Positions 1,564 through 23,481 of a stretch of 24,545 nucleotides of DNA are shown piece after piece (the first letter of the stretch is position 1; the number at the start of each line of letters is the position of its first letter). Source of the stretch: a virus (lineage: Duplodnaviria > Caudoviricetes); IMG/VR virus record IMGVR_UViG_3300031519_004833, positions 1 to 24,545 of that record; one strand, written 5' to 3'. Position numbers and translations under genes: made by a program. Under the pieces are notes generated by a model. It saw nothing but the letters and a program-made list of their open reading frames with translations, ran no database searches and was not told where the DNA came from.

Positions 1564-1635
1564 ACCACATTTAGGGGTTGACTTGTTGGCTTGGTGGTGC
1601 GATACTACATTTGTAAGTACAAAACAGCACAGGAG
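1564..1635 (+). promoter_or_regulatory. Repeated promoter/RBS element, copy 1
   Basis: ACCACATTTAGGGGTTGAC at 1564-1582; TTGACT-N17-GATACT; GCACAGGAG at 1627-1635. Confidence 0.85.
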
Positions 1636-1641
1636 TTTAAA

Positions 1642-1845
1642 ATGTACACAGTTTTTAAAATTAACCTTGATAATACTTTAAGTAACAAGGAACACCTTAA
1701 TGATGATGAGTTAGGTGCTTGGATGTATGATTATGCTTACAATAAGTTTGCTACTATAAAAGTAGTGCAAGACTTTACAAATAAGTTTTGTATTTACACA
1801 GATAATGGCAAAGACTTTGAATTAATTGATAGGGGGTACTTATAA
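1642..1845 (+). CDS. Hypothetical protein (67 aa), paralog of 19195..19404
   Basis: ATG 6 nt after GCACAGGAG; MYTVFKINLDNTLSNKEHLN. Confidence 0.85.
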   Translation: MYTVFKINLDNTLSNKEHLNDDELGAWMYDYAYNKFATIKVVQDFTNKFCIYTDNGKDFELIDRGYL

Positions 1846-1970
1846 TGGCTAAAGGTAACAAAGGTAGGGGAAAGATACATAGCACTAGCAGGGGTTGGGA
1901 AAAGGCTCTTAAAAAGCAAGCTAAAGCTAAAGATAGAAGAAACAATAAAAAAGCTACAGGGAGTTATTAA
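1845..1970 (+). CDS. Small, highly basic protein (41 aa)
   Basis: Not in the ORF track. TAATG coupling to the upstream gene and it fills the gap exactly: MAKGNKGRGKIHSTSRGWEKALKKQAKAKDRRNNKKATGSY. Confidence 0.75.
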   Translation: MAKGNKGRGKIHSTSRGWEKALKKQAKAKDRRNNKKATGSY

Positions 1971-1971
1971 A

Positions 1972-2160
1972 ATGGATTTATATGTAAATCAAGATGTTGT
2001 TATAAGAACTGAAGATTTAAAAAAAGCAATGATGACTTTAGTGCAGAAAGTTTTAGATGCAGAAATGCAGGGTAAAAAAGTTTCTGAAGAAGCAAAAGAA
2101 GCAACTAAAGTTTTACATACTGCTTCATTACAAGATGATTGGGTTATGTATAGACCTTAA
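1972..2160 (+). CDS. Hypothetical protein (62 aa)
   Basis: GGGAG RBS; tight operon packing. Confidence 0.75.
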   Translation: MDLYVNQDVVIRTEDLKKAMMTLVQKVLDAEMQGKKVSEEAKEATKVLHTASLQDDWVMYRP

Positions 2161-2181
2161 TAATTAGCACAGGAGAATAAA

Positions 2182-2511
2182 ATGGGAAGCAGGGTAATGA
2201 CAGAATATAGAACAGAGATGTATGCTTATAAAAATATAAAAACTAAACGACCATCACAAGGTTATAATACAGAAAAAGAAAGAGCATACTCTAAATGGAG
2301 TGGTGTTAGTGATTGGGAAGTTTATTACAAAGATATGCTTATTGGTGAAGTATATTATATTGGAACACATCTTATTGATTGGGGTTATTGCAACCTTGAT
2401 GGAGAGATTAAAGGTGGTTCTTATAGTAAAGGAAGTGCAGTTAGAGAACTTTATGAACAATGGAAAAAACGAGAAATAGATTTTTTAAAAAAAATATGGG
2501 GGGATAAATAA
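2182..2511 (+). CDS. Hypothetical protein (109 aa)
   Basis: GCACAGGAG at 2167-2175 precedes the ATG. Confidence 0.8.
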   Translation: MGSRVMTEYRTEMYAYKNIKTKRPSQGYNTEKERAYSKWSGVSDWEVYYKDMLIGEVYYIGTHLIDWGYCNLDGEIKGGSYSKGSAVRELYEQWKKREIDFLKKIWGDK

Positions 2512-2729
2512 TGTATTACATGGAAAAAGTTTTAAGATTTGTTATTTATAAAAGACGTAAGTTTTCAAGTGGTGAAGTATCTGGTTATAGCCTTTATGCA
2601 AGTTTTGATAATATAGATGATGCCAATGATGAATTAGATACTCTTAACTTTGATATGCCAGATTGGGAAGAATACAAGGTTGTTGATAATGGTAGGCAAA
2701 CAGAGGTTAAGCGATTTGCGATGTTGTAA
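2511..2729 (+). CDS. Hypothetical protein (72 aa, acidic middle)
   Basis: TAATG coupling; G-rich RBS. Confidence 0.75.
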   Translation: MYYMEKVLRFVIYKRRKFSSGEVSGYSLYASFDNIDDANDELDTLNFDMPDWEEYKVVDNGRQTEVKRFAML

Positions 2730-2907
2730 GTTTGTTATTAGGTGTTATTGCTATTTGCATTATTACTTCTTCTAATGCTCCAATGCTTTCATATTCTTCA
2801 ATACTAAACATTGGGTATAAATCTCTTATATATGTAACATCATTTTTAGTTAGTTTTGATGAATCTTTGTCCAAAACTTTCATAGCTTCTTTAAAATATC
2901 TTGTCAT
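2707..2907 (-). CDS. Small hypothetical protein downstream of the MuF-like gene (candidate immunity or partner protein)
   Basis: GAGGAG RBS upstream; start overlaps the 3' end of the MuF-like gene. Confidence 0.6.
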   Translation of the reverse strand: MTRYFKEAMKVLDKDSSKLTKNDVTYIRDLYPMFSIEEYESIGALEEVIMQIAITPNNKLTTSQIA

Positions 2908-4771
2908 TCATCATCTCCTCTAAAACTTCTATAAATTTTGGGTCAACTAAATCTTTTCTGTCCATAAAATATAAACTAAAATTTTCAACAAACCATTCTT
3001 TAGTATCTGTTGCCCCATAAGTAGTTGGCGAATTTTTCTTATATGAGTAAGTAATGTCCCTTTTTCTTAATCTTTCTTCTAATGGATATTTTATTTGTTT
3101 ATAATTGGGCTTTCTTATTGTGTTATCTTTTACTTTATATTTATAAGTTTGATGAACATGATGACCAAATTCATGATATAGTGTTGACCTAAATTGATCT
3201 AATGGGCTTTCCCAAAATTCATCTGTATTATGTGGTCTATTTTTTAATTTATCACTTCTTTTCCATTTTGATATTGATTTTGCTCTTATGCCATAACTCT
3301 CATTCAAATCTGATATTTTATCTTGCCATCTAATTCTTCCATTATATAAAGGTACAATTGCATTGTAATCATTTATAATTTCATTAGTATCAATTTTCTT
3401 TGTTTTTTTAAGAAATTCTTTAATTGTCATTACATTATATTTTTTAAACATTCCATCTATAGGTCTAGTTGATAAATTAATTTTTTCCTTTAAATCATCT
3501 ATTTCTTTTTTAACTGTTATAGGCATTAGTTTTGGTTTGTCTGTTCCAATGTTTAGTGATTTACTATTTATATACTTGCTATTTATACTAAGAATTCCAT
3601 CGCCCATTTCAGCCAATGTACTGCTATTAGGTGATATTTTGTTTATACCTCTTATATTTGCAACATTAAATTTTTTGGATAAATTATCTAATTCTGGTAA
3701 TAAGGCAACTAACATAGATAAAGATTTTTTATCCATTTGTTTTGTTTTATCATTAAAAATTCCAAAACCAGTATCCTTTTTTCCCATTGTACTGTTAAAA
3801 ATTCCATAATCTTTGTTTATATATCTGTTATCATTACTCGCATCTTTTACATATTTACTTAAAATAGATGTGGCTTTTTCTAAAGGTAAAATTTTAAGTG
3901 TGGCACTAGTAAGTGATTTATCTATTACAGAATCCAACATAGAGGTAGTAGAAATGTTAACTTGTGGCTTTGGTGTGACTTGTATTGGTGTGTCTTGGTC
4001 TACTATGATATCCTCTGGCTCAATGTAAACTATAACACATCTACAATTTACAACCTCTTTGACACCCCCCTTTGGATCACCTGCAAATTTCATTCTTTTG
4101 CCACCAACTATAAAATCTTCATCGATACCAACCTCTTGTCCGTTTGCTGATATATGTGATGCCCTGCTTCTATCGTCAGTTGTACTTACCCATCTTTTCT
4201 TCATATCAGGCACTTCAAGGTTCTCTGCTTGTTTTTGTATTGCAAAACTTGATGCTGTATGGGTTTCAGTCCTTGCTATGGTTGATGCTCTAGCTTTTGT
4301 AAACTTAGGTGACATTCTTTCATTAATAGCTTTGGATATAACAGGAACACCTTCTGATTGGTTCTCTAATATAGTTCTGCTTATTATTTTTCTGGTGGTG
4401 TCACTAATTTCTGTAATTCTAATGCCACCGATGTCTTGCATAAACTGTTTATAGATTCCGTCGTAGTCTTGTATCGCTTTTTGTGAGTATCTATTATTAA
4501 AAGTTCGTTTCGCAAACGCCAAGATGATTTGTCTATAAAATGGTTCAAGAGTGGTTGCCACATCAATCCGTATAAATGAAGCGATTGCTTCAAAGCCTTG
4601 TGTACCATTAGAAATAAAAGCATCACTAGCTTTAGAGCCAATTTTTGAAAAGGTGCTAATTAACCTAAAATTAATTTGCCTTTCGTAACTTCTGCGAAGT
4701 CGGTTTATCTCCTGATATTCCTTCCTCACAGATAGCTTCATTCCTCTTTGTTTGTAAGCTAATTGAGTCAT
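2891..4771 (-). CDS. Head morphogenesis protein (MuF/SPP1 gp7-like) with C-terminal extension bearing a zinc-metallopeptidase-like motif
   Basis: RASTIARTET, KKRWVSTTDDRSRASH and VNCRC MuF motifs; C-terminal TLYHEFGHHVH followed by EWFVENF. Confidence 0.9.
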   Translation of the reverse strand: MTQLAYKQRGMKLSVRKEYQEINRLRRSYERQINFRLISTFSKIGSKASDAFISNGTQGFEAIASFIRIDVATTLEPFYRQIILAFAKRTFNNRYSQKAIQDYDGIYKQFMQDIGGIRITEISDTTRKIISRTILENQSEGVPVISKAINERMSPKFTKARASTIARTETHTASSFAIQKQAENLEVPDMKKRWVSTTDDRSRASHISANGQEVGIDEDFIVGGKRMKFAGDPKGGVKEVVNCRCVIVYIEPEDIIVDQDTPIQVTPKPQVNISTTSMLDSVIDKSLTSATLKILPLEKATSILSKYVKDASNDNRYINKDYGIFNSTMGKKDTGFGIFNDKTKQMDKKSLSMLVALLPELDNLSKKFNVANIRGINKISPNSSTLAEMGDGILSINSKYINSKSLNIGTDKPKLMPITVKKEIDDLKEKINLSTRPIDGMFKKYNVMTIKEFLKKTKKIDTNEIINDYNAIVPLYNGRIRWQDKISDLNESYGIRAKSISKWKRSDKLKNRPHNTDEFWESPLDQFRSTLYHEFGHHVHQTYKYKVKDNTIRKPNYKQIKYPLEERLRKRDITYSYKKNSPTTYGATDTKEWFVENFSLYFMDRKDLVDPKFIEVLEEMMNDKIF

Positions 4772-6572
4772 TTTTCTCTTTATCTTTCATAATCTCATTC
4801 CTTTTTCTTTTTGACCAAGCAAACCCTGCATCGCCACCCCATAAACCCCAAGCAATGCGACCTGCTGATGGAAATCCTTTTTCACCACTCCTAAATCCTT
4901 GTGCTTGCTTATCCACTTCATGCCTACTAAAAAAACTATACATTCTCAAGACTGTTCTAGCTGAAAGATTTTCTTTGTTTACTAATTGTGTTGCCCTTGT
5001 AGAACCAACAGCAGTTCCACCTCTATTAAATTCTTTTCTCCAATTAAGAGCCTGTCTTGCATTATCTGCCATTTCATTTGTTGGTTTAAAGCTGTCAGCC
5101 TTTATTTGCTTTGAACCTGTTATCTTATTATATTCTTCATGTGTTTCACATGGCATATATATAGTTTTACCATCTTCTGTCATTGAATGATAACCTATAC
5201 AACCTATTTCTTCAGAGCGTTCTTCTGCTTCTTCTTCCGTTGTAAATACATCTTCTTCAATTTCTTCTTTAGTACCATATGCTTCATTGGCAAACTTATC
5301 AACATCATCTGCTGATTGTGATGGTGGTGTTTCTGAACCTAAAGGAAATAGATTAGCAGGTATATAAACTTCATCTCCACCCCTGATTGGCTCTAACCCT
5401 AATCTTTCTCTTGCTTCATTTCTAGTTATGATACCTTTATCAACTGCTGTTATAACATTATCATAGATCATTCTTCTACGTTCTGTTATTGCAGGTATAT
5501 CATCTACAAGATATTTTAACTTTAGGTCATCTCCGTAAATAGGAACTAACCACTCATTTAAATCACTTTCAATATGCTTTAACATTGGAATTATTGTTTC
5601 TTCATATAAAGCTAATCTTGCTTCCTGCATATTTGAGTAAGTATTTGAATCAGGTATGCCAACTAACTGACTTGGAACTCCAAAACATAAAGCAATATCT
5701 CTAGCCGCAAAATTTTTCATTCCTGTAAAGTCCATATCCTTTGGACTCATACCCATTTCTTTATAATCAAAATCTCCTTCAAGAATCATTGTTCTACCTG
5801 CATTGTTAGAACCTTCAAACCTTTGGAGCAAATCTCCTCTTAACTGTTCTCTTTGTGTATCTGTAAGCATAGTGTTTGATCCAGATTCATCTTTAGGTCT
5901 ATAAACAACAGCACCACTTGGTCTTGCTCCGTTCATAAGTAGCATGACATTATGTTTGTTACTTAGGTTATGTTGATCGATATCTACAGATGCCGCTTTT
6001 AATGGGGATAAACCATAATAATCATCTAATGGATTAAATAACATAATTTGCTTTATATCAGAAGAACCTGTGCTTTGATCAACGTCATAATTAGCAGATA
6101 CTTGTCCATTAACTATATATTGAAAACTCATTGGTATTTCACGCTTACTTGGTATAATTTTTATTCTATCAGGTCTTAGTGTGTATAATTCAGATGGCTC
6201 TCTATCTTCTGCACCTGTTTTTAAAATATAACTATTACCTGCCAATAATAAATATGAATAAACTTCTTGAAAAAATTCTGATTGGCTATTCATTGGATTA
6301 GGTCGCATTAACAAATCTAATAGTGGGTGATCCTCTATTGGCTGATCTCCACGAAACAAACCAAACTTGACTGATGCCGCTCCATTAGCTATCTCATTAA
6401 CACATCTATAAACTATAGCGTTTTCTTGATAACCTTCTTTTGCTAAATCTGCATAACTTTCTTTTGGCTGTACTTGTGTGCCTACATTTGAATAAGCTAT
6501 AACAGGACCTTCTTTCCTGCTAATAACTATACTATCGTTTATTAATGCTTTCCACGCTTCTTTTAATCCCAT
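4671..6572 (-). CDS. HK97-family portal protein with C-terminal extra domains
   Basis: VYRCVNEIA, LLLAGNSY, YYGLSPL, NGARPSG, IALCFGVP, NTYSN and ITRNEARERLGL motifs; start 6572 by TAATG coupling to terL. Confidence 0.95.
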   Translation of the reverse strand: MGLKEAWKALINDSIVISRKEGPVIAYSNVGTQVQPKESYADLAKEGYQENAIVYRCVNEIANGAASVKFGLFRGDQPIEDHPLLDLLMRPNPMNSQSEFFQEVYSYLLLAGNSYILKTGAEDREPSELYTLRPDRIKIIPSKREIPMSFQYIVNGQVSANYDVDQSTGSSDIKQIMLFNPLDDYYGLSPLKAASVDIDQHNLSNKHNVMLLMNGARPSGAVVYRPKDESGSNTMLTDTQREQLRGDLLQRFEGSNNAGRTMILEGDFDYKEMGMSPKDMDFTGMKNFAARDIALCFGVPSQLVGIPDSNTYSNMQEARLALYEETIIPMLKHIESDLNEWLVPIYGDDLKLKYLVDDIPAITERRRMIYDNVITAVDKGIITRNEARERLGLEPIRGGDEVYIPANLFPLGSETPPSQSADDVDKFANEAYGTKEEIEEDVFTTEEEAEERSEEIGCIGYHSMTEDGKTIYMPCETHEEYNKITGSKQIKADSFKPTNEMADNARQALNWRKEFNRGGTAVGSTRATQLVNKENLSARTVLRMYSFFSRHEVDKQAQGFRSGEKGFPSAGRIAWGLWGGDAGFAWSKRKRNEIMKDKEKNDSISLQTKRNEAICEEGISGDKPTSQKLRKAN

Positions 6573-7864
6573 TAACTTACTCTCCATATGGCTTGACCAG
6601 ACGATTTGCTGAGTTCAGTTAACCCCCACACTAGGGCATCGAGCCTGTCAGGTGAACTTCTACTGTCTAAAGTATAAGAACACATTTGATCTTCCAATTT
6701 AGAAAAAGAGCCAACATGACTTACCCTTTCCTGCTCATATAGTGCTGATATAGGTTCTGCTCTTATCATTTTACCCCTAGAAGCGTGTACTTTTTTATAT
6801 GGCACATCTTTATCTACAGTTCTAATAAGTCTTTCCACTAAATCGCCACCATTATTTACTTCTGCAATTATTCTATCGCAATTATGCTTGTAGTAAGCGT
6901 TGATTGCAACATTAGCCCAAGTATCTGCACTCATTCTATCAGATAAATCTTCAATAACATAGAACCTTTTATCAAAACCTTTTCCGACTACTACAATACC
7001 TGTTTCATCAGAGCCTTCATTGTTGGTAACAGCAGGGTCAATGGCAACTATAACTCTCTGCATTTCTGGTAATTGATTAACTCTAGTTTTCTCAATCATT
7101 GATGGACTCCATAAAGCACCCTCAATATCATCTAATACTTCAGCATAGAGTTCTTGTCTACCCAATCTTGTATTATCATATTTTTCTTTTAACATTCTTA
7201 ATGCAGATGGTGCAAGATTGGCTGAATTGTCAAAAGTATTGCCTCTTGTAACTACAATATTAGTTCTTTTTATAAGATTTTTAATTAATGGGATAGGCTT
7301 TGGTGTTGTTGTGACTATACATTGTGGCTTAGTACCTAAACGTAAACCAAACATTAATTGGTCAAAAGTATCTGGATATTGCCAAGATGCTAACTCATCA
7401 CACCATGCTCTATGAAATTGTGGACCTCTTAATCTATCTGGCTCTGTTGCAGAGAAGCCTAATATCTTAGAGCCATTATATAACCTAATCTCTGCTGAAC
7501 TGCTGTTATAGCCTTGCCCTCGCCCTTTCATAAGGCACTCTTTAGGGATAATACTCATAAGACCACTAACACCACCAAATGCAACTCGTCTTATATCTCC
7601 AAATGTAGGAGTTACTACTGCACAAATTGTTTCAGGGTTAGCAAGAGCATAATAGGCTATATCAGTTGCACCTGTTCTTGTCTTACCCCAACCTCTACCT
7701 GCTAGGATTAGCCACATATCCCAATCACCTGATGGTGTTACTTGTGCATCTCTAGCTGTTTTATGCCAATTATTGTATAGTGTGATCAGCCCTTTCTGAC
7801 CTTGTTCTGTTAACTTGTTGTATCTGTTCGAGAAGTCCTCTGAAGTCATCTGAAGTTGAGACAT
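6572..7864 (-). CDS. terL: Terminase large subunit
   Basis: Walker A AGRGWGKT, Walker B AWCDE, TTTPKP, nuclease motifs VAIDP and DRLDA. Start could be 7849. Confidence 0.96.
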   Translation of the reverse strand: MSQLQMTSEDFSNRYNKLTEQGQKGLITLYNNWHKTARDAQVTPSGDWDMWLILAGRGWGKTRTGATDIAYYALANPETICAVVTPTFGDIRRVAFGGVSGLMSIIPKECLMKGRGQGYNSSSAEIRLYNGSKILGFSATEPDRLRGPQFHRAWCDELASWQYPDTFDQLMFGLRLGTKPQCIVTTTPKPIPLIKNLIKRTNIVVTRGNTFDNSANLAPSALRMLKEKYDNTRLGRQELYAEVLDDIEGALWSPSMIEKTRVNQLPEMQRVIVAIDPAVTNNEGSDETGIVVVGKGFDKRFYVIEDLSDRMSADTWANVAINAYYKHNCDRIIAEVNNGGDLVERLIRTVDKDVPYKKVHASRGKMIRAEPISALYEQERVSHVGSFSKLEDQMCSYTLDSRSSPDRLDALVWGLTELSKSSGQAIWRVS

Positions 7865-8353: not shown

Positions 8354-9064
8354 TCAGTTGTTCTCATTAGTTCCCACTATAGTCTCATTTTCTTTTTTTT
8401 GAAGTAAAATTTGAGATTTAGTTGTCCATGCCTTAGAATATTCTGCATCTTCAAATAATTTAGAGAAACCTGTTATATGTTTTAGCCTTAATAATTCATC
8501 TGCTTCCATTCCTAAATGATTACATATATCTTCATCTTTCCAACCATTATCTAACATTGCAAAGACCATATGTGACATACCATTAACACTATGCTTCCCC
8601 CTTGCTCTATTGTGTCTTACTGTACTAGCCATTCTATCGTTAATATCTTTATCAATAACAACTATAGGTAACTTGCCATGATTCCGTTCTAATATATCCT
8701 TATTGGATTTGCAGACAAAGTATCTGTGGAAACCATCTACAATAATGTACTTATCTATTTCTTTATCATATATAGTTACTACAGGCTGTGTATAACCATC
8801 ATGCTTAATTGATGTATAAAGCAACCCCATTTCTACTTTAGCAACTGAATTAGGGTTATAGTCGTTTGCTTGTACTTTTTCTATATCAACCCATCTAATG
8901 TGATTAACAGGCTGTGTTTTTAGATTTGTAATATTGTTTAGCTTTTCTTTTAATTTTTCTACATACAAAATTTTATGTTCTTCTGTTAAATCACTTATGT
9001 CTTTCTCAATATAAGTTTCTATTGTTTCAACTGCTTCAGTCATGCTCCAACTATCTATGTCCAT
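8354..9064 (-). CDS. ParB/sulfiredoxin-like N-terminal domain protein, IbrB/YbdM-like
   Basis: ANDYNPN, DGYTQPVV, IVDGFHRY and STVRHNRARGKH motifs; paired with the IbrA-like gene. Confidence 0.9.
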   Translation of the reverse strand: MDIDSWSMTEAVETIETYIEKDISDLTEEHKILYVEKLKEKLNNITNLKTQPVNHIRWVDIEKVQANDYNPNSVAKVEMGLLYTSIKHDGYTQPVVTIYDKEIDKYIIVDGFHRYFVCKSNKDILERNHGKLPIVVIDKDINDRMASTVRHNRARGKHSVNGMSHMVFAMLDNGWKDEDICNHLGMEADELLRLKHITGFSKLFEDAEYSKAWTTKSQILLQKKENETIVGTNENN

Positions 9065-10239
9065 TCTTTCCCCCTATCTTCTAATTTAATAAATCTTAAA
9101 TCTCTATCAGGTCTATTCCAATTAATAGTTTTCCCTCTTTTCCATTTATTAAAATTAACTGATTCTGGTCTTGATAAAAAATTTTCAATCTTAGTAAACT
9201 CATAATCATTAGCCAATATAGATATAATTTGTGTTTTATGCAATTCGTACTCTCTATCCATACCTTTATATTTTTCTGCCATATCCTTAAATTTTACTTG
9301 GAATTTTATGTTTACTTCTTCATCTATTACTAAATATTTTAACAAATGATCTCTGTATTCTTCCCACGAATTAAACATAAAAGGCAACTTATTAGTGCTA
9401 AACATATCTTTTTTTGTTAAATGCTTTGATTGATTTATGCCTTGAAGTCTTGTTGTTAGCTTATTCCACGTATCTGGTTCAATCTCATGCAAATAAAATA
9501 ATTGGTCTACTGCTGTTTCGTGGTGCAAATTACTTATTCTCATCTTATGTGGCTGTAATCCAAATCTATAAAACTCATCATATACTTTGCAATAACTCCA
9601 TTTGTTATCGTGGATAGCTTTCCAAATATCTGAAACATTCCAATCATATAATGGGTAAAATGTATAATGATTAAGTTTTTTTGATTGTACATTTCCATAT
9701 GTAATATGCTTATATGTTTGACCTTGTGTAAGTCCTGCTCTCCTATTAGGACTTTCTTCTGCTCTTACACCCCCTAAAAATGCACAAGAATAGTCTGAAA
9801 AATGATATTTTTGAACATTACCAAATAATTGTTTAAATCTATCAGTACCATAAACATTTTCTTTAATGCTTATATCTTCCTTTGGTCTCATCCAATTTTC
9901 TTCATCATCTGGATTCCAACAGTTTAACCAATGCTGTTCCATTGATGTAGCATTAAATAATTTAATCGGTACTTGTAGCCAATATGGTTCAACTTCTTCC
10001 ATATTCATTACTGTTCTTACATAATCAACAACATTTTGCCATTCTGCTTCTTGATCTAAGAAAAGAACTTTTAATGGCAATTTATTTTTTTTCTTTGCTA
10101 CTATTAATGCTAAATTAAATATTGCTGTTGAATCCTTGCCACCACTAAAAGAAACTATTACTTCCTGAAACTCATCAAAAATATACTCTATCCTTTCAAT
10201 AGCTTTATCCCATACATTTTCTTTTAAAAATATTTTCAT
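9055..10239 (-). CDS. PAPS-reductase-family (PP-loop) protein, IbrA/YbdN-like
   Basis: VSFSGGKDS, GVRAEESPNR, YPLYDWxxxDIW and MRIS motifs. Confidence 0.9.
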   Translation of the reverse strand: MKIFLKENVWDKAIERIEYIFDEFQEVIVSFSGGKDSTAIFNLALIVAKKKNKLPLKVLFLDQEAEWQNVVDYVRTVMNMEEVEPYWLQVPIKLFNATSMEQHWLNCWNPDDEENWMRPKEDISIKENVYGTDRFKQLFGNVQKYHFSDYSCAFLGGVRAEESPNRRAGLTQGQTYKHITYGNVQSKKLNHYTFYPLYDWNVSDIWKAIHDNKWSYCKVYDEFYRFGLQPHKMRISNLHHETAVDQLFYLHEIEPDTWNKLTTRLQGINQSKHLTKKDMFSTNKLPFMFNSWEEYRDHLLKYLVIDEEVNIKFQVKFKDMAEKYKGMDREYELHKTQIISILANDYEFTKIENFLSRPESVNFNKWKRGKTINWNRPDRDLRFIKLEDRGKEWT

Positions 10240-11233: not shown

Positions 11234-11492
11234 TTATTTTTGCTCTATTTATAAGTATGGTTTGATCTATAGGAGAACCCATTGTCCAATATTTATAGTT
11301 TTCTATATATAAAACAGTATATGAATATCCTTTAAAAAACTCTATTTTGCCATTATCTCTTATAAACTGAACAGCTTGACAAAAGTTATCTTCGTTATCC
11401 CATTCTTTTTTTAAAGAATAATAATGTGGAGTATTAGGCATAGTCTTGGCAAATCTATATGATTTACTTGTAATTTCTTGAATTATATCCAT
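11223..11492 (-). CDS. Conserved hypothetical protein (FAKTMPxxPHxY ... YKYWTMG ... LINRA)
   Basis: Tightly coupled within the operon; I recognise the motif pattern as a recurring uncharacterised family. Confidence 0.8.
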   Translation of the reverse strand: MDIIQEITSKSYRFAKTMPNTPHYYSLKKEWDNEDNFCQAVQFIRDNGKIEFFKGYSYTVLYIENYKYWTMGSPIDQTILINRAKINES

Positions 11493-12070: not shown

Positions 12071-12126
12071 AATTTTCTCCTGTACTTTTATTATAATAAC
12101 TATTTTTTTAAAAAAAACAACATAAA

Positions 12127-12193
12127 ACCACATTTAGGGGTTGACATGGTGACTAAGCTGTATTATATTATATATATAAACAAAGCACAGGAG
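12127..12193 (+). promoter_or_regulatory. Repeated promoter/RBS element, copy 2
   Basis: 19-mer at 12127-12145; TTGACA-N17-TATATT; GCACAGGAG at 12185-12193. Confidence 0.88.
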
Positions 12194-12199: not shown

Positions 12200-12409
12200 A
12201 TGACATACGGAATTAAAGAACAAAATGCAGATATATTTATTGAAAATGTTTTAAAAACTTTAAACGAAAATGATGATTTTAGTATTAGAAATTTAGATAA
12301 AGTTTGTAAAAAGCACCATTTATACAAATCATTTGATTCATTTGAGATTTGTGATGTAGTTGGGCAAATTGAAAATCATATAAAAATTATACTTTTAGAA
12401 AGAGAATAA
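12200..12409 (+). CDS. Hypothetical protein (69 aa)
   Basis: ATG follows GCACAGGAG; flanked by two copies of the 19-mer. Confidence 0.8.
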   Translation: MTYGIKEQNADIFIENVLKTLNENDDFSIRNLDKVCKKHHLYKSFDSFEICDVVGQIENHIKIILLERE

Positions 12410-12485
12410 ACCACATTTAGGGGTTGACATATAGGCATAGCTGATATATAATGTCTGTATAGAGTAAACAAAAAATGCACAGGAG
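12410..12485 (+). promoter_or_regulatory. Repeated promoter/RBS element, copy 3 (perfect sigma70 consensus)
   Basis: 19-mer at 12410-12428; TTGACA(12424)-N17-TATAAT(12447); GCACAGGAG at 12477-12485. Confidence 0.92.
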
Positions 12486-12491: not shown

Positions 12492-12716
12492 ATGTTAGAA
12501 TTAAGCCAAGTAACAAGAACAATAGATAGCACTAATTATGTAGCTACAAATACACCAAATGCAGATGTTTCAATAGTTGTTAAATATGATGACAATGTTG
12601 TTGTTAATATATTTGATAATGAAAGAAGTGAAAATACTATGAGAGTATTTGATGATTTTGATGAAGCAGTAAGATGGACTGAAACAAGAGTATGTATGAA
12701 TGTGAGTTTTTCATAA
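12492..12716 (+). CDS. Hypothetical acidic protein (74 aa)
   Basis: Strong RBS; first gene after promoter copy 3. Confidence 0.8.
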   Translation: MLELSQVTRTIDSTNYVATNTPNADVSIVVKYDDNVVVNIFDNERSENTMRVFDDFDEAVRWTETRVCMNVSFS

Positions 12717-12964
12717 TGATTACTAAAACAGAAATACTTAAAACTGCAATGTTAAACCAAGATTGGGAGCAAGCAATAAGGATTGCTTCCAAGTTTCAAA
12801 ACTTAGGAAAACATAAACATGAAATTAAAACTGCAAAAGATGCAATGTTTTCACCTAGCTTTTATAAGCAGATTGGCAAGAATCCAACAGAACTAATTGC
12901 GATTGGTGCTGAAGCAATAAAAGTAAGATATGCTTATTTATTAGGAGATAAAAATGGCGATTAA
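12716..12964 (+). CDS. Hypothetical protein (82 aa)
   Basis: TAATG coupling, start MITKTEIL. Confidence 0.75.
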   Translation: MITKTEILKTAMLNQDWEQAIRIASKFQNLGKHKHEIKTAKDAMFSPSFYKQIGKNPTELIAIGAEAIKVRYAYLLGDKNGD

Positions 12965-13154
12965 TATTAATGATTTAGACGATGCAACATTAGAAAGATT
13001 AGGTATTAGTGATACTAAGACTACAAAAAAATACACTTTTAATGTTGAGCAAGAAAGACAATGGGCAATCAAATTGTTAGCAGTATTGCCAAATTTAAAA
13101 CAATCAGAAAGAGAAAGAGTCTTGACAAGAGCCATTAAGATGAACAGAATGTAA
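12954..13154 (+). CDS. Hypothetical protein (66 aa)
   Basis: AGGAG RBS; followed by a terminator. Confidence 0.8.
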   Translation: MAININDLDDATLERLGISDTKTTKKYTFNVEQERQWAIKLLAVLPNLKQSERERVLTRAIKMNRM

Positions 13155-15411: not shown

Positions 15412-15454
15412 GTTGTGGCATAGACAAATGTAATTGTAAACCCTTTTATGTGGT
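15412..15454 (-). promoter_or_regulatory. Degenerate copy of the repeated promoter element upstream of the replication genes
   Basis: Minus strand ACCACATAAAAGGGTTTACA, 16/20 identical to ACCACATTTAGGGGTTGACA; weak -10 preceded by TGC as in other copies. Confidence 0.6.
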
Positions 15455-15458
15455 AATA

Positions 15459-15791
15459 TTATAATATTTCTTTAATGTGTATAGGTGGATTGTATGTCGC
15501 TAGTATTTTTTTTCTCAACATATAATCCCTTGTCTTAGTGGCTTTAGACTTTACATCTTCTACAATAGAAACTCCAGATTGGTCAAGATATCTGAAGTCA
15601 GCAGTATACCTGCCAATCTTTATGCCATTAACCATTAAATCAAATTTAGGATGTGTTTCTAAGTTAGCTATATATTTATTTTTTTCAAGTATCTCTAATT
15701 CTAAATATCTGTTTAATTCTTTTTTAGATGCAAACTTAAGACCTTTGTACTCTTGTTTTATTGCGAAGTATTTGTTGCTCATAAAGGTCAT
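15459..15791 (-). CDS. DUF1064-like PD-(D/E)xK endonuclease
   Basis: NKYFA, FASKKELNRY, YTADFRY and VEDVK motifs. Confidence 0.85.
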   Translation of the reverse strand: MTFMSNKYFAIKQEYKGLKFASKKELNRYLELEILEKNKYIANLETHPKFDLMVNGIKIGRYTADFRYLDQSGVSIVEDVKSKATKTRDYMLRKKILATYNPPIHIKEIL

Positions 15792-15960
15792 GCCCTGTTA
15801 CTGAATTAGTTGTTAGATTGAAAATCTTTTCTGCAAACTCAAATCTTGGCAATCTTTCACCCCTTGACCACTTCTCAACATTTCTAACAGATGTATTAAG
15901 TTCATTGGCAAGACTTTTACAAGTATGATTCTCTTGGTGCATCCACTCTCTTAACTTCAT
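15736..15960 (-). CDS. Cro-like XRE/HTH transcriptional regulator
   Basis: MKLREWM...LANELNTSVRNVEKWSRGERLP...VTGHDLY; AGGAG RBS. Confidence 0.85.
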   Translation of the reverse strand: MKLREWMHQENHTCKSLANELNTSVRNVEKWSRGERLPRFEFAEKIFNLTTNSVTGHDLYEQQILRNKTRVQRS

Positions 15961-15989: not shown

Positions 15990-16059
15990 ATCATATCAGA
16001 AAAAAAATATATGACAACCCTTTTTAGTGCTTGCAATTCCCCTTTTTGTGGTTTAAAGT
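15990..16059. promoter_or_regulatory. Back-to-back divergent promoters containing two degenerate copies of the repeated box
   Basis: Minus: TTGTCA(16017-16012)-N16-TATGAT with TGn. Plus: TTGCAA(16031)-N17-TAAAGT(16054). Minus-strand boxes GCACTAAAAAGGGTTGTCA and AAACCACAAAAAGGGG. Confidence 0.6.
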
Positions 16060-16148
16060 TAATTTGGGTTATTGACGAGCCGACCATGAACTTAAACATA
16101 TCGCAGTATATGTAGGAAGTGAAAAGGCTAACGTAGTAACCCAATAAC
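16058..16148 (+). ncRNA. Candidate structured leader RNA or DNA hairpin (long interrupted stem-loop)
   Basis: Nested pairings TTGGGTTATT/AGTAACCCAA, ACG/CGT, AGCC/GGCT, ACTT/AAGT and ACATAT/ATATGT in a noncoding gap. Confidence 0.5.
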
Positions 16149-18731: not shown

Positions 18732-18760
18732 TTTAAAATAATTTAAAAAAACTCTTTTTT

Positions 18761-18825
18761 GGGGTTGACTTGTAAGCATAGCTATGCGATTATAATTATG
18801 TAAGTACAAAACAACAGCACAGGAG
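18761..18825 (+). promoter_or_regulatory. Repeated promoter/RBS element, partial copy lacking CCACA
   Basis: GGGGTTGACT-N17-GATTAT; leader TGTAAGTACAAAACAACAGCACAGGAG nearly identical to copy 1. Confidence 0.8.
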
Positions 18826-18832: not shown

Positions 18833-19195
18833 ATGAATAATTTAAAACCAAAATTTGTATATGTAAATTGGAGTGAAAGTTCAGCATTTGAGGATAGTTC
18901 AATGTATACTTTTGAGCAGTTTGAGAGAATGGCTGAAACAGTTGCACAAAACCACGATAATGGTGGTGGGTATCTAAAAACTAACATAACAGTTATTTTT
19001 AAATGTGGACATACATACCAAGCAAGAGTTGATTTAAATACTGACTGTTTAAATTTTGAACAGCACATAAGCCAATGTAAATTGACTTATAAAAGATGTG
19101 TTGATGGAAATTTTGAGAGAACCGACCTTTGGGTGCAAAGTGTTGTAGATTTAAACGAAACTTGGAAAAGAATAGAATTTAAGGAGGTAGCGTAA
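18833..19195 (+). CDS. Hypothetical protein, LPD25-like (polyvalent-protein-associated domain)
   Basis: VxWSES...GGYLKT...TYQARVDL...QHI pattern recalled for LPD25; not verified by HMM. Confidence 0.6.
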   Translation: MNNLKPKFVYVNWSESSAFEDSSMYTFEQFERMAETVAQNHDNGGGYLKTNITVIFKCGHTYQARVDLNTDCLNFEQHISQCKLTYKRCVDGNFERTDLWVQSVVDLNETWKRIEFKEVA

Positions 19196-19404
19196 TGTAT
19201 GAAGTTTATAAAATAAATCAAGATGATACTTTAAGCCACAAGGAACATCTTAATAATTTTGAAGAAGTTAATCATTGGTTAGTTAACGATGCTTATTATA
19301 AATATAGCTATGTTAAGATTATAAATGTTCAAACAGGCAATTTTAGAGATTATAAAATTACTGATGACGAGTGGATTGTTATTAAAAGAGGGAGTGCAAA
19401 ATAA
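19195..19404 (+). CDS. Hypothetical protein (69 aa), paralog of 1642..1845
   Basis: AGGAGG RBS; TAATG coupling; MYEVYKINQDDTLSHKEHLN. Confidence 0.85.
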   Translation: MYEVYKINQDDTLSHKEHLNNFEEVNHWLVNDAYYKYSYVKIINVQTGNFRDYKITDDEWIVIKRGSAK

Positions 19405-19616
19405 TGAATGAACTAGAATTTATAGCTAAATTAGAGAATATATTATCTAAGGATCAAGAGATATTAGATAATAAAATTCCTGTAGATAGAGCAACTTATT
19501 TATTAAATGAAATAAGAGATTTAAAAAACAAAGTTGAAACACAATTTAATAAAGCTGAAAGGCAAAGTGAATTAGAGAATATTGAAGATAACTTAAACAA
19601 CTATAGGGGGAATTAA
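19404..19616 (+). CDS. Hypothetical coiled-coil protein (70 aa)
   Basis: TAATG coupling; GGGAG RBS. Confidence 0.75.
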   Translation: MNELEFIAKLENILSKDQEILDNKIPVDRATYLLNEIRDLKNKVETQFNKAERQSELENIEDNLNNYRGN

Positions 19617-19618
19617 TT

Positions 19619-19834
19619 ATGAAACTATCGCAAAAATTACAAGTGTTAGCACACTTAAAAAAGAATAAAACTATTACATCGTGGGAAGCAATCCAGATGT
19701 TTAGATGCACTAGATTAGCAGATAGAATATTTATTTTAAAAGAAGAAGGTCATAATATTATAACAAGAATGGTAACTGAGAATGGCTCAACTTTTGCTGA
19801 ATATACTTTAATAAAGGAGAGCGTTGATGCCTAG
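19619..19834 (+). CDS. Small winged-HTH protein (HTH_39-like)
   Basis: SQKLQVLAHL...ITSWEAIQMFRCTRLADRIFILKEEGHNIIT. Confidence 0.8.
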   Translation: MKLSQKLQVLAHLKKNKTITSWEAIQMFRCTRLADRIFILKEEGHNIITRMVTENGSTFAEYTLIKESVDA

Positions 19835-19967
19835 TTATATCAAAGGTTATTTAAAATTTATGGGGGTTATAGCGACAGCTATAGCCACTCTATATGCCAT
19901 GTATTATTCTTTTTGGTTTATATGCCTAATTGATAATTCTTGTTATGCCGATAATTTTGGAGTTTAA
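19827..19967 (+). CDS. Small single-pass membrane protein (46 aa)
   Basis: Not in the ORF track. AAGGAG RBS; MPSYIKGYLKFMGVIATAIATLYAMYYSFWFICLIDNSCYADNFGV; fills the gap. Confidence 0.7.
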   Translation: MPSYIKGYLKFMGVIATAIATLYAMYYSFWFICLIDNSCYADNFGV

Positions 19968-19968
19968 A

Positions 19969-20274
19969 ATGAAGAATGAATTTTTATATCAAATAAATAA
20001 TATTAGTCATGTTTTATATCATAAATCTCAACCTGCAAACCAAGATAATGATATATATAAAAATGTTAGTCATTATTCCAGACATATAAAATCTTTAACA
20101 AAAGAACTTGATAGAACAATGTTCACAAAATCTGAATTAGATATGGTTTCAAAGATATCTGAAATGTATTTAACTTGGGATACAAAAGAAGAAAAACATT
20201 TAAAATCTATAAAAAGCAAATTAAAAAGATTATCAAAAATGGCAAGAGAATCTAGATATGAAAGGATTAAATAA
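19969..20274 (+). CDS. Hypothetical protein (101 aa)
   Basis: GGAG RBS before ATG 19969. Confidence 0.75.
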   Translation: MKNEFLYQINNISHVLYHKSQPANQDNDIYKNVSHYSRHIKSLTKELDRTMFTKSELDMVSKISEMYLTWDTKEEKHLKSIKSKLKRLSKMARESRYERIK

Positions 20275-20468
20275 TGGAAAATCCATTAGAGAAAAAAAGA
20301 GCAACATATTTAAGTTTTTATAAAGATGGTATTTATGATGGTCTTTTAAATCAAAAAATAAATCCTACAAAAAATTCGTCTGCATATTATAAAAGAGGAT
20401 TTCACGATGGACTAGAGTTAAAGGGTTTTGTAATAGAATATAAACTTGGAGTAAAAAATGAAAGATAA
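20274..20468 (+). CDS. Hypothetical protein (64 aa) with duplicated YKxGxxDGL motif
   Basis: TAATG coupling; FYKDGIYDGL and YYKRGFHDGL. Confidence 0.75.
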   Translation: MENPLEKKRATYLSFYKDGIYDGLLNQKINPTKNSSAYYKRGFHDGLELKGFVIEYKLGVKNER

Positions 20469-20670
20469 CGTAAACAATCCTGCACATTATAAAAAATCAG
20501 GTATTGAATGTATTGATGCCATTACTTCAGCTTTATCGTCAGATGAGTTTAAAGGATATTGTAAAGGAAACATTCTTAAATATGTTTGGCGAGAAAATCA
20601 TAAAGCTAAAAAAGAGGATTTAAAAAAAGCACAATGGTATTTAAATAAATTAATTGAAGTCTATAAATAG
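20458..20670 (+). CDS. DUF3310 protein (T7 gp1.7-related nucleotide-kinase-like family)
   Basis: DNVNNPAHY...IECIDAI...GYCKGNILKYVWR...EDLKKAQWYL. Confidence 0.9.
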   Translation: MKDNVNNPAHYKKSGIECIDAITSALSSDEFKGYCKGNILKYVWRENHKAKKEDLKKAQWYLNKLIEVYK

Positions 20671-20678
20671 GTAAAATT

Positions 20679-20873
20679 ATGAAAGAGATATTACTTAAAG
20701 AAGCATCAGATGAGGTTGTTTATCTTAGAAAGATATTACAAAAATATAGAGTTGATACAGATAATTGCGAATTATCTCATAAAGAAAATCTAAGAGAGAT
20801 TGATAATTTTATAAGATACACTCAAATAATATATGCAAAGTTAAATTATTTTGATGGATTGGAAGAAAAATGA
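20679..20873 (+). CDS. Hypothetical protein (64 aa)
   Basis: Operon packing; ATGA overlap with the next gene. Confidence 0.7.
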   Translation: MKEILLKEASDEVVYLRKILQKYRVDTDNCELSHKENLREIDNFIRYTQIIYAKLNYFDGLEEK

Positions 20874-21100
20874 ATCTAATTAAACATGAATACAAAGGAT
20901 ATATATATGATCCTGATTTTACGATTATGTCTGATGGTGTAGAGATTAATCATTATATCTTTAGAAAGTCTGATTTATCAAAGCCATGTTATTTTTACTA
21001 TGGAGTTAAAAAAGATTACATGAGCAAAAAGCAATTCATAGATTATATAATTCTTATGGAGAAATTAACAGATAATAAGCTAACCACATTTAGGGGTTGA
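20870..21100 (+). CDS. Hypothetical protein (76 aa)
   Basis: ATGA coupling; stop codon lies inside the repeated 19-mer. Confidence 0.7.
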   Translation: MNLIKHEYKGYIYDPDFTIMSDGVEINHYIFRKSDLSKPCYFYYGVKKDYMSKKQFIDYIILMEKLTDNKLTTFRG

Positions 21101-21152
21101 CTTACCCTTTTTTTGTGTTTATAAATATATGTAAATACAAATAGCACAGGAG
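21083..21152 (+). promoter_or_regulatory. Repeated promoter/RBS element, copy 4
   Basis: 19-mer at 21083-21101; TTGACT-N17-TATAAA; GCACAGGAG at 21144-21152. Confidence 0.87.
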
Positions 21153-21158
21153 TTAAAA

Positions 21159-21536
21159 ATGAGAGTTTTAGTAGTAAACACAATTTATTTTGAAAACTAT
21201 AAAAGCCATAACCAAGATTGGGATGGCAAAACTGCTTGGTGGAAACGTAAAGGTGGTTCAAGCAAAGCTGTAGCAATTATATTAGGTTGCTATGGAAAAA
21301 GCCTAGATATAATGCCTAGTGGATTTGAACCTATTGAAGATTGTGAAGTAAGAAATTCACTTAGTCAATTAACTATGGTTGATAGTACAGAACTTTTAAC
21401 TGTAGGAGAAGCAAAAGAAAGATTACGAAAATTAGAGGGTGATGAAATGAATGACTCTGATTTATATTTTTCAAGAATATCTTTGCCTTACTCATATGAT
21501 GAAGTTGAAGATTTGCCAAGTTACAGATTAACATAG
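21159..21536 (+). CDS. Hypothetical protein (125 aa)
   Basis: Strong RBS; first gene after promoter copy 4. Confidence 0.8.
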   Translation: MRVLVVNTIYFENYKSHNQDWDGKTAWWKRKGGSSKAVAIILGCYGKSLDIMPSGFEPIEDCEVRNSLSQLTMVDSTELLTVGEAKERLRKLEGDEMNDSDLYFSRISLPYSYDEVEDLPSYRLT

Positions 21537-21545
21537 GAGAATATT

Positions 21546-21830
21546 ATGAAAAAATTAATAATAACAATATCCTTATTAAGTTTGTTTACAGGTTGTTCAA
21601 GCACCCCAGAATGGAAGCCTTTAACTGATCCTAGAGCAAGCAAAGAACCAAGAGAGATTATTAGAGATACTTTAGAATGTGAAAGGTTAACTAAAAATTT
21701 AAAATACAAACCATCTAAATTTTTAGGAGTTCCATATTTTTGGGGAAGTTCAGCAGAACACGAAAGAAAATTAAATACTAACCCTTTGTCTAAATGCCTA
21801 AGTGGTAGAGGACATTCAATCTTAAACTAA
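21546..21830 (+). CDS. Putative lipoprotein
   Basis: MKKLIITISLLSLFTG-C signal peptide and lipobox; two further Cys. Confidence 0.8.
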   Translation: MKKLIITISLLSLFTGCSSTPEWKPLTDPRASKEPREIIRDTLECERLTKNLKYKPSKFLGVPYFWGSSAEHERKLNTNPLSKCLSGRGHSILN

Positions 21831-21840
21831 GGAGAAAAAA

Positions 21841-22746
21841 ATGTTGAATAATGCAATGCAAGAAGAATTAAGAAAAGTAAGTTTTCCAATAGCGATTAAT
21901 AATATAAGTGGAATACCTGAAGATATGGGCAGGGTAGTAGTTAGAACTGATCATGCACCTGCAACACCACTTGGAATAGTTGGAAGTAGGTATAAACCTA
22001 TCCCACATATAGATGCCTTTGGTGGTGCTTTAAAAGCTATGGAAAGTGGTGGAATAAATTTTACTAATGCCAAGCTAGATATTGAATCCTATGAAGATGG
22101 TGCGATGGCTAAGATGGAACTATTATTACCAAGTCATACAGCTAAGATTGGGAATCATGATTTGAGTTTAAAATTTGTAGCTAGAAATAGTTACAATGCA
22201 AGATGGAAATTTCAATCTTTTTTTGGTTGGATGAATCATGTTTGTTTTAATACTTTAGTAAGTGGAGAAAAATTAGCCTATACAGCAAGTAGACACACAA
22301 AGTTTTTTAATGTGGAACAAGCTAATCTTAAAATAAAAAATGCAGTTAGTGCAGTTACAAGTGAAACAAAAAGATTTCAACATTGGTGGGATACTAGAGT
22401 AGAAGATGAATCTGTAGCTGAAATGTTTAAAGCGACTATAGCTAAGAGCCAAGCAACTGAAGCCCAATTAAATGGAGGATCACCAGATACCAATAGAAAA
22501 CAATTACATATCTTAATGGGATTATATGAATCTGAAACTAAGCAGATACATGGGAAAGGTGACTATGGCAGGAATGGAGTTAAGGGTTCTTTATGGTGTG
22601 CTTACCAATCTGCTACTGCTTGGAGTACACATTTAACTGATATAGCTGATACAACTAAGAAACAACATATTGTTCAACAACGTAGACAAGCAGATGTTAG
22701 AAATATGATTCTTAGCAAAAGTTGGAAAAACTTAGAATTAGCATAG
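21841..22746 (+). CDS. DUF932-family protein
   Basis: LGIVGSRYKPIPH, NSYN, VCFNTL and SLWCAYQSATAWSTH motifs. Confidence 0.8.
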   Translation: MLNNAMQEELRKVSFPIAINNISGIPEDMGRVVVRTDHAPATPLGIVGSRYKPIPHIDAFGGALKAMESGGINFTNAKLDIESYEDGAMAKMELLLPSHTAKIGNHDLSLKFVARNSYNARWKFQSFFGWMNHVCFNTLVSGEKLAYTASRHTKFFNVEQANLKIKNAVSAVTSETKRFQHWWDTRVEDESVAEMFKATIAKSQATEAQLNGGSPDTNRKQLHILMGLYESETKQIHGKGDYGRNGVKGSLWCAYQSATAWSTHLTDIADTTKKQHIVQQRRQADVRNMILSKSWKNLELA

Positions 22747-22760
22747 GAAAGATTTTTTAA

Positions 22761-23408
22761 ATGAAAGTTATGCCAATCAAATACCACGAAACTGAAGAAT
22801 GGTTGATGAATATACATTATTCAAAACGATTGCCATCAATAACATATTCATTTGGTTTATTTGAGGATAATATTTTGATTGGCATAATTACTTATGGAAT
22901 GCCTGTATCTCATACATTATGTGAGGGTATCTGTGGAAAAGAATATAAAGACAAAGTTTTAGAACTAAATAGATTATGTCTTTTACATAACAGAAAAAAT
23001 GAAGCATCTTTTTTAGTTGGAAATTCATTAAAGTTATTACCAAAACCATTAATAATTGTTTCTTTTGCTGATACTGCAATGAACCATCATGGATATATAT
23101 ATCAAGCTACAAATTTTATTTATACAGGATTAACAGACAAACATTCTGAATGGAGATTAAAAGGAAGCAATCTTCATCAGAAAAATATTACTATTGATTA
23201 TTCCTTAGAAGAAAGAAAAGCAAATCCAGATAAGTTTGAAATAGTTCAGAGAACAAGAAAGCATAGATACGTCTATTTTCTTGCAGATAAAAAAACCAAA
23301 AAAGAATTTCATAAAAAATTAAATTACAAAATATCTAAATATCCAAAAGGTCAAAATAAAAATTATGAGGTCGGATATATCCCAAAAGTTCAAGGTGTTT
23401 TATTTTAA
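22761..23408 (+). CDS. Mom-like (GNAT-fold) DNA adenine-modification protein
   Basis: HYSKRLP, GIITYG, LELNRL, IVSFAD and HHGYIYQATNFIYTG motifs typical of Mu Mom relatives. Confidence 0.8.
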   Translation: MKVMPIKYHETEEWLMNIHYSKRLPSITYSFGLFEDNILIGIITYGMPVSHTLCEGICGKEYKDKVLELNRLCLLHNRKNEASFLVGNSLKLLPKPLIIVSFADTAMNHHGYIYQATNFIYTGLTDKHSEWRLKGSNLHQKNITIDYSLEERKANPDKFEIVQRTRKHRYVYFLADKKTKKEFHKKLNYKISKYPKGQNKNYEVGYIPKVQGVLF

Positions 23409-23409
23409 G

Positions 23410-23481
23410 ACCACATTTAGGGGTTGACATTATTGCAAAGCCATGCGATAACTTAATTGTAAACGTAACCAAGCATAGGAG
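23410..23481 (+). promoter_or_regulatory. Repeated promoter/RBS element, copy 5
   Basis: 19-mer at 23410-23428; TTGACA-N17-GATAAC; GCATAGGAG at 23473-23481. Confidence 0.85.

Follow-up and report, generated by a model that had tools for sequence, protein, structure and literature searches.

The DNA analysed here (24,545 nucleotides; hereafter the window) is a 24.5-kb fragment of the virus record IMGVR_UViG_3300031519_004833 with GC content of 31.7%, and it contains six copies of a promoter unit, each beginning with a 17-bp imperfect dyad (the dyad box) and followed by an island of mostly small genes. The structural genes of the window encode a prohead protease, a Mu-F-like head protein, an HK97-type portal and a terminase, and the replication genes encode a primase/helicase, an initiator-like HTH_36 protein, a RusA-like resolvase and a small helix-turn-helix (HTH) protein of 74 amino acids (aa). 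Genes for an exonuclease, ERF, SSB, DUF968, DUF932, a Mom-like protein and a cell wall hydrolase, and a block of ParB, PAPS reductase, methylase and GNAT genes, are also present. The sequencing runs with matching DNA were marine, brine and lake, with no RNA dataset listed among them, and the source is an uncultured marine phage clade. The HTH, DUF932 and exonuclease queries found no match among cultured phages, and the closest cultured-phage matches were those of the primase (32%), portal (42%) and hydrolase (51%). When the HTH alignment was searched against bacterial genomes, 0 loci were returned and no prophage or host was found. Four near-complete relatives (49–53 kb, 96–100% complete by CheckV) were available, and none of them had a match to PF00589, PF00717 or PF00239 (integrase, cI-type peptidase and resolvase, respectively). 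A Rfam search gave 0 matches at E ≤ 1.

The 19-mer ACCACATTTAGGGGTTGAC occurs in five exact copies in the window (1564, 12127, 12410, 21083 and 23410), every one on the + strand, and 100 shuffles yielded no match, so that five copies were reached in 0 of them. A partial copy, GGGGTTGAC, at 18761 marks a sixth unit, whose upstream part deviates (register 18751, ACTCTTTTTTGGGGTTGAC), and no further match was found in the window at up to three mismatches. These copies had been described in an earlier note on this DNA together with a TTGAC −35 element, a −10 element at 17 nt, an A-rich leader and a GCA(C/T)AGGAG ribosome-binding site (RBS). The mismatch and shuffle scans confirmed the copies, and the remaining architecture was recovered as well: all six units have TTGAC[A/T] as −35, a spacer of 17 nt and an A-rich leader with the RBS ahead of ATG (Table 1). 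The −10-like hexamers are GATACT, TATATT, TATAAT (12447), GATTAT, TATAAA and GATAAC, of which only the one at 12447 is perfect and two lack the final T. GCA(C/T)AGGAG was found eight times on the + strand and never on the − strand; it lies downstream of the promoter in all six units, and the two extra copies (2167 and 23792) have no promoter. The reported contact of three copies with the preceding stop codon was seen at 12410 (TAA ending at 12409), at 23410 (TAA ending at 23408) and at 21083, where the TGA of the upstream gene falls within the −35. The islands behind the six units have 5, 1, 3, 10, 4 and 3 genes, the ten-gene island being the one behind the partial copy; this agrees with the range of 1–10 given before, and not all the genes are small, as those of 301, 215 and 160 aa exemplify. 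In a generic promoter scan the sites were no commoner than in shuffles (65 versus 69 and 48 versus 61), and the copies at 12424 and 12141 took the top ranks. A terminator scan found a hairpin at one of the six window units, and this one was weak (21092–21109). Both 12127 and 12410 are spanned by one X1 contig with 0 differences, which was not taken as independent because X1 is possibly the source sample.

Table 1. Coordinates of the promoter units, dyad boxes, gene islands and control region in the window.
Feature	Position	Strand	Remarks
Dyad box AACCACATTTAGGGGTT and promoter unit	1563..1579, unit to ATG 1642	+	Overlaps −35 at 1578
Island of 5 small genes	1642..2729	+	Separates prohead protease from head morphogenesis block; has GCACAGGAG inside at 2167
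Dyad box	12126..12142	+	Overlaps −35 at 12141; RBS 12185; ATG 12200
69-aa gene	12200..12409	+	Flanked by two tandem units with repeat length of 283 bp; relatives lack it or have another gene
Dyad box	12409..12425	+	Overlaps −35 at 12424; TATAAT 12447; RBS 12477; ATG 12492
Island of 3 small genes	12492..13154	+	
Dyad box TACCACATAAAAGGGTT	15439..15455	−	Predicted promoter of replication-initiator-like and primase/helicase genes
74-aa Cro/XRE-type HTH gene, candidate binder	15736..15960	−	First in operon HTH, RusA-like resolvase, initiator, primase/helicase
Site A, dyad box	16016..16032	.	Between back-to-back −35-like hexamers (TTGTCA on −, TTGCAA on +)
Site B, inverted box AACCACAAAAAGGGGAA	16037..16053	−	Fills 17-nt spacer of predicted exonuclease, ERF, SSB promoter
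Variant dyad box AACTCTTTTTTGGGGTT	18750..18766	+	Overlaps −35 at 18765; RBS 18817; ATG 18833
Island of 10 small genes	18833..21100	+	Includes LPD25, HTH_39, DUF3310
Dyad box	21082..21098	+	Overlaps last codons of upstream gene and −35 at 21097
Second box-like site	21103..21119	.	Fills spacer of 21083 promoter, 21 bp from first site
Island of 4 genes	21159..23408	+	Includes DUF932 and Mom-like DNA modification gene
Dyad box	23409..23425	+	Overlaps −35 at 23424; RBS 23473; ATG 23488
Island of 3 genes	23488..24483	+	Last gene is cell wall hydrolase
G/C hairpin	23763..23782	.	Resembles a terminator on either strand; GCACAGGAG follows at 23792

With one base added at its left, the 19-mer contains AACCAC-ATTTA-GGGGTT, a stretch of 17 bp in which five of the six outer pairs are complementary. 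The last two bases of this imperfect dyad, AAC-N11-GTT, are at the same time bases 1 and 2 of the −35 hexamer. Ten dyad sites were found in the window, at the six island promoters and at 15439, 16016, 16037 and 21103; both the symmetry and the latter four sites had been overlooked in the first reading of the sequence. The conservation of the box was examined at promoters of distant relatives that were called from −35, −10 and Shine–Dalgarno (SD) sequences only, in loci found via protein queries, the box being ignored in the calling to avoid circularity. The 27 distinct promoters so obtained collapsed to 21 at 80% identity. The exact 19-mer was present in none of these 21, while C at −13 was kept in 20, AAC in 18 and G at −3 to −1 in 19–20, and the symmetry profile taken from −45 to +34.5 was highest at −7, which is the centre of the box. 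As control, viral contigs were scanned for GGGTTGAC..GCAYAGGAG with a gap, giving 117 loci that are nearly all unrelated. AAC was found in 1 of 17 promoter-like GGGTTGAC sites, mostly from unrelated viruses, and in 2 of 84 sites overall; the sole control with AAC among the 17 was L046, whose terminase and portal DNA matches the window. Since the 19-mer is absent but AAC and GGG are kept in the distant promoters, the conserved core of the clade is, by sequence comparison, AAC-N8-GGG-TT, and the 14-bp identity is local to the lineage of the window. The invariance of the 14 bp upstream of −35 claimed previously holds within this lineage and does not extend to the clade.

The box was also found away from the −35 element. 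The sequence AACCACANNNAGGGG gave eight matches in the window at up to two mismatches where 0.75 were expected; one is an exact inverted copy at 16039–16053, another lies at 15441–15455, and the eighth, at 1459, lies within a gene and is probably due to chance. Of the 21 promoters, 17 were used for a held-out matrix, to which they contributed 16 distinct boxes of distant relatives; two control-region promoters in shifted register and two L212 promoters were left out. The top 10 of this matrix includes nine of the ten window sites, only 8% of the 17-mers being non-genic. Genome scans with a matrix that this one replaced gave matches barely above shuffles (1, 4, 7 and 7 versus 0–4). Boxes flipped at −35 occur in L212 and L157, and G003–G005 have tandem boxes 22 bp apart with one GGGTT half that touches no −35. 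The 15439 site is kept in L002 and absent from 10 distant loci. As far as these sites tell, the box is independent of position and orientation. It could be argued that RNA polymerase alone reads the element, as an A/T-rich upstream element plus GGG ahead of −35 that was copied along with the promoter and homogenised by recombination. The lack of the exact 19-mer in the distant promoters and the poor inner symmetry of the box are in line with this, and the PeSL promoters of T4-type phages also have an AT-rich upstream part, the words “operator” and “repressor” having 0 occurrences in PMC2839356. Polymerase contact is, however, not expected of a box that occurs in spacers, inverted and in tandem with a GGGTT half off any −35, and the fixed C at −13 is specific to this clade. 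We give this alternative little probability. In a separate observation, the facing halves of two tandem boxes make a terminator-like GGGG..CCCC hairpin in L004 (8270–8317) and L007 (6795–6843), so operator pairs and terminators may interconvert.

The 74-aa HTH gene heads its operon, which is separated from the exonuclease, ERF and SSB operon by only 218 bp. Sites A and B lie 21 bp apart in this divergent control region. The 125 bp upstream of the HTH gene was scanned in 18 regions with a matrix that contained no control-region site and without any spacing rule. The two best sites were 21–22 bp apart in 16 of the 18 regions, window included, and the site-pair scores in 16 of 18 were matched by 0 or 1 of 100 shuffles; in L229 the best pair was 42 bp apart. 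The protein itself weakly matched regulators in PHROGs (E 1.5e-4) and NCBIfam (RstR, 3e-4, below cut-off), and 68 relatives were found, some of them labelled XRE at the source. Its predicted structure has five helices (pLDDT 83.5), and XRE-type rows were on top in Foldseek. The putative recognition helix 3 has R26-N27-x-E29-K30-W31, which is invariant in 14 aligned sequences, and the motif family and this helix are conserved together across the clade. A rival binder, the HTH_39 protein (19619), is missing from all four near-complete relatives that carry the box. Together, these features point to the 74-aa Cro-like protein as the likely candidate binder of the dyad box.

The control of phage promoters by host factors is known, and a host transcription factor such as a stress or cell-cycle regulator might instead bind the box and time the early genes. 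The motif family is kept despite different head modules (HK97-type portal here and an 810-aa portal-like open reading frame, ORF, in G001), and L235 has the HTH without sites; both would suit a host factor. The clustering of tandem sites at the promoter of the phage's own HTH gene in 16 of 18 regions goes against it, and we know of no host motif having the form of the dyad box. A host binder appears improbable on this evidence.

Beside site B, 16066–16143 (+) in the exonuclease leader is a candidate structured RNA forming a long, branched and conserved hairpin. Two-sided changes were seen in 9 of 25 predicted pairs in six sequences, with no Rfam match, and the structure is absent or gene-replaced in L004, L204 and L208.

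The gene content at the units differs among relatives. In these comparisons, L032 and L035–L037 (the window's own record) and L003, L030, L031, L202 and L211 (the same record as L002) were excluded from independent counts. The Mom query gave 47 loci, of which 10 (L010 and L156–L164) were informative and the remainder too distant. The 18-mer matches of L001, L017, L022, L033 and L034 lie in high-GC DNA that has no homology to the window, and these loci were discarded as probably due to chance. L002 lacks the 69-aa gene at 12200 with the crossover at the RBS, L014 lacks it with the crossover at the box or −35 and L018 with the crossover in the spacer; in L020 and L023 it is swapped RBS to RBS for a 60-aa gene. 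L016, L024 and L026 have an extra 71-aa gene following the 21083 promoter, again by RBS-to-RBS crossovers. L038 and L029 have an additional box-promoter-gene unit ahead of the 23410 promoter, an 89-aa gene is replaced in L038, and 23409–23995 is lacking in L010. At the unit beyond the hydrolase, the first genes in L012, L013 and L027 differ from those in L028 and L010. Genes have also moved between units: homologs of the 2182 gene follow the exonuclease-side promoter in G001 and G002 and a different box in L212, and the slot beyond the hydrolase contains homologs of the 12492 gene. Contig joints are independent of the selection of loci by the motif. The three listed within 11900–12800 all go from unit to unit, namely 12150 to 12434 (spacer) and 12203 to 12477 in X2, and 12196 to 12489 (RBS) in X7. 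No backward joint indicating a circle of 12127–12410 was listed in four contig sets, in which rare forms are dropped; in the whole-window contig mapping the joints are shown only in part and are mostly short-sided noise.

Small genes are thus gained, lost, exchanged and moved among relatives, and the crossovers can lie at any point of the ~80-bp unit of box, promoter, leader and RBS. The earlier proposal that the repeats supply homology for shuffling is upheld in that gene content varies with crossovers inside the units; some breakpoints fall in the box, as expected, and others in the spacer, in the GCACAGGAG leader or off the units altogether. An integron-like cassette system using the box as site-specific recombination site would account for the tandem 283-bp unit being found with and without its gene. 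Its crossover points should then be constant, but they vary from box/−35 (L014) to spacer (L018, X2), RBS (L002, X7) and RBS to RBS (L020, L023, L016, L024, L026), and PF00589 and PF00239 had no match in the four near-complete relatives. This idea is largely refuted and we regard it as very improbable. The varied crossover points and the lack of a recombinase match argue for homologous exchange and not site-specific recombination.

We propose that the dyad box is the operator of the phage's Cro-like protein, placed on PeSL-like exchangeable promoters, and consider this prediction from sequence moderately probable. The dyad lies across the upstream edge of −35 at predicted early promoters, those of the six islands and of the replication genes, and the divergent promoters of the HTH gene have it as a tandem pair. 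On entry, the host sigma70-type polymerase would fire all the box-promoters; the HTH protein would be made first, and its dimer would bind and block these promoters as it accumulates, most tightly where two sites lie 21–22 bp apart. The exchange of genes would be homologous and probably driven by the phage's exonuclease/ERF pair. The same exchange would homogenise the copies, which could explain the 14-bp identity in one lineage, and a captured gene would enter the regulon at once. The description of the unit as promoter, operator and RBS is thus supported, the operator being likely and predicted. Co-regulation of accessory genes is likewise predicted, the islands having the box; because the box is also at the regulator, recombination and replication promoters, a whole early regulon is indicated and not an accessory-only cassette.

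The geometry of the box fits repression and activation alike. The same HTH protein could bind and activate, a single site near −42 contacting sigma region 4 and only the spacer site repressing. The box spans about −50 to −34 in standard numbering, and class II activators overlap the −35 region, one of them being lambda CI, which at OR2 activates PRM (PMC1874639). In addition, four of the six −10 hexamers are weak, and at two promoters the spacer contains another site. Activation nevertheless seems unneeded at the six island promoters, all of which have a near-consensus TTGAC[A/T] at 17 nt, and the HTH gene, leading the replication operon, takes the position of cro. Repression is favoured on account of these −35 boxes and the gene position, and activation is judged rather unlikely.

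Several observations weigh against a repressor operator bound by the 74-aa protein. The position of the box is compatible with class II activation, as described. Complementarity among 19 boxes was seen in 17, 17 and 19 for the outer three pairs but in just 5 and 4 for pairs 4 and 5, and the TT of −35 makes up two of the three outer right-hand bases; in terms of sequence the box is one strong and one loose half and no clean palindrome. Site B scores low with the matrix of distant boxes, at row 16 in the directional and row 20 in the symmetrised form, and the sixth rank of the held-out scan goes to a false positive within a gene (23044). The HTH protein is below cut-off for Pfam HTH_3/HTH_31, and none of its Foldseek rows reached E ≤ 0.001. 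L235 has a related HTH but shows no tandem sites, its score being equalled in 16 of 100 shuffles, and G004 has boxes without an HTH match in the record, which ends near that region. Several of the 18 control regions are near-identical and hence there are fewer independent cases than 18. The junction loci, except L010, were found via the motif, which biases them to breakpoints at units, and gene loss or replacement also occurred off the units, for instance at 10239–11279, 12718–12953, 19408–19615 and 20411–20692.

The HTH gene and its surroundings resemble the lambdoid control region. In lambdoid phages, the PR and PL operons run as HTH, resolvase, initiator and primase/helicase versus exonuclease, ERF and SSB. 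Likewise, a small XRE/Cro-type HTH (weak E-values, consistent fold) heads the operon leading to initiator and helicase here, the recombination genes lie on the opposite side of the control region, and tandem dyad sites cover divergent predicted early promoters. The sites are 17-bp dyads as for Cro and CI, of which one borders −35 where the two promoters stand back to back and the other occupies a spacer. Lambda Cro and CI cover 17-bp sites, PR overlaps OR1 and OR2, and binding to OR1 or OR2 blocks PR (PMC1920246). Unlike the lambdoid arrangement, the 218-bp gap leaves no room for a cI gene and the four near-complete relatives showed none, no integrase match was found in the four relatives at least 96% complete, two early promoters share one operator pair, and single sites with a degenerate left half-site are dispersed over at least seven further promoters. 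In such a clade without cI or integrase, the lone Cro-like protein might be a genome-wide master switch whose operator is built into a portable promoter-RBS unit. It would either keep the early programme (replication, recombination, accessory) off in a carrier state without integration, or first activate and later repress it through the −42 and spacer sites. We treat this extension as doubtful, with some chance of being right.

The units also resemble the PeSLs of T4-type phages, which are composites of promoter, stem-loop and SD at indel sites (Arbiol 2010, PMC2839356; Comeau 2014, PMC4122927). They share an AT-rich upstream part, a sigma70-like promoter by consensus match and an SD, often lie right behind a stop codon, and show indels and replacements of small genes among close relatives, partly motif-ascertained. 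The defining stem-loop terminator, in contrast, is lacking in five of the six window units (21083 has a weak one), the conserved part is a dyad box common to the core promoters, and the phages are of ~50 kb and non-T4, with HK97-type portal and protease, primase/helicase and ERF. Some relatives come closer to PeSLs, having a G/C hairpin ahead of the box (L038, L029, L010 and L004), and the hairpin of 23763–23782 directly precedes a box-promoter in relatives. Tandem PeSLs can also excise mini-circles; for 12127–12410, the contig sets, from which rare forms drop out, listed no joint of this kind.

Stoperators are asymmetric and oriented sites. Like mycobacteriophage SAS/ESAS and stoperators, the boxes are dispersed sites thought to be bound by one regulator; as in cluster K SAS/ESAS, a conserved extended RBS (GCACAGGAG) is found at a subset of genes and an upstream inverted-repeat element at some (PMC3203893). 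They differ from ESAS, a pair of 17-bp repeats with variable spacer, in being a single 17-bp dyad fixed to −35; from the 13-bp SAS in the sequence GCA(C/T)AGGAG; and from the 13-bp cluster A stoperators (PMC3203893) in that the predicted site occurs in both orientations. Unlike integron-like or att cassette systems, there is no recombinase match and no fixed crossover point. The C-proteins of restriction-modification systems are small XRE proteins with tandem operators at their own promoter. C.Kpn2I and C.BclI appeared as weak Foldseek rows for the HTH model; unlike C-protein boxes, the sites here are genome-wide with no adjacent restriction gene.

Each component idea has precedent, and a literature search that covered few subscription papers returned neither a lytic phage in which Cro operators are dispersed as a regulon nor this combination. 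The proposal would bring together Cro-type operators and the exchangeable promoters of the PeSL type, on which the descriptions have so far been separate. If true, it would show how accessory genes can be reshuffled by a phage while the control wiring stays unchanged. The first interpretation of the repeats is thereby partly supported and extended, and the observation behind it is a real feature of the DNA. The 74-aa protein and the 17-bp site, with its natural variants in both orientations, make a ready test pair. The units mark slots for the trial of small genes in the clade and offer a short list for counter-defence screens. Only the Mom-like gene, LPD25 and DUF932 hint at a possible anti-defence function of island genes; PADLOC and NCBIfam gave weak matches below cut-off for the island genes, the PADLOC models being of defence and not anti-defence.

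Further observations were made at the units. Within 12064–12142 (−), the leftward ParB-like gene probably starts ~55 bp from the 12126 box, which lies upstream of it; this gene has TATAAT but no clear −35, and the box may act in both directions. A second palindrome family, GCATAGCTATGC, is found in promoter spacers (12435–12446, 18776–18787 and 23435–23446); it varies by lineage, being TTGACA-N3-TGTCAA in L212 and L029 and TGTA-NN-TACA in a distant group, and is possibly the site of a second regulator. The genes at 1642–1845 and 19195–19404 are paralogous small genes (41% aa) from different islands. Past the window end, a 191-aa gene lies behind the GCACAGGAG leader (L010 4162, L027 753, L028 1095), and has by eye the appearance of an oxygenase-type auxiliary gene.

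Elsewhere in the window, 8354–12070 (−), just upstream of the terminase, encodes ParB-like, PAPS reductase/DUF3440, methylase, GNAT, one unassigned and ParB-like proteins. It is likely a DNA modification block, and its middle is replaced in L002, L014 and L018. The head morphogenesis gene (2891–4771, −) is fused to a Peptidase_Mx1-like domain, and the portal (4671–6587, −) has a long C-terminal extension (DUF3721). In G001 (L238 7913–12243), the same early module with HTH and boxes is accompanied by a different head module, having an 810-aa portal-like ORF and another terminase, with family labels assigned by reading.

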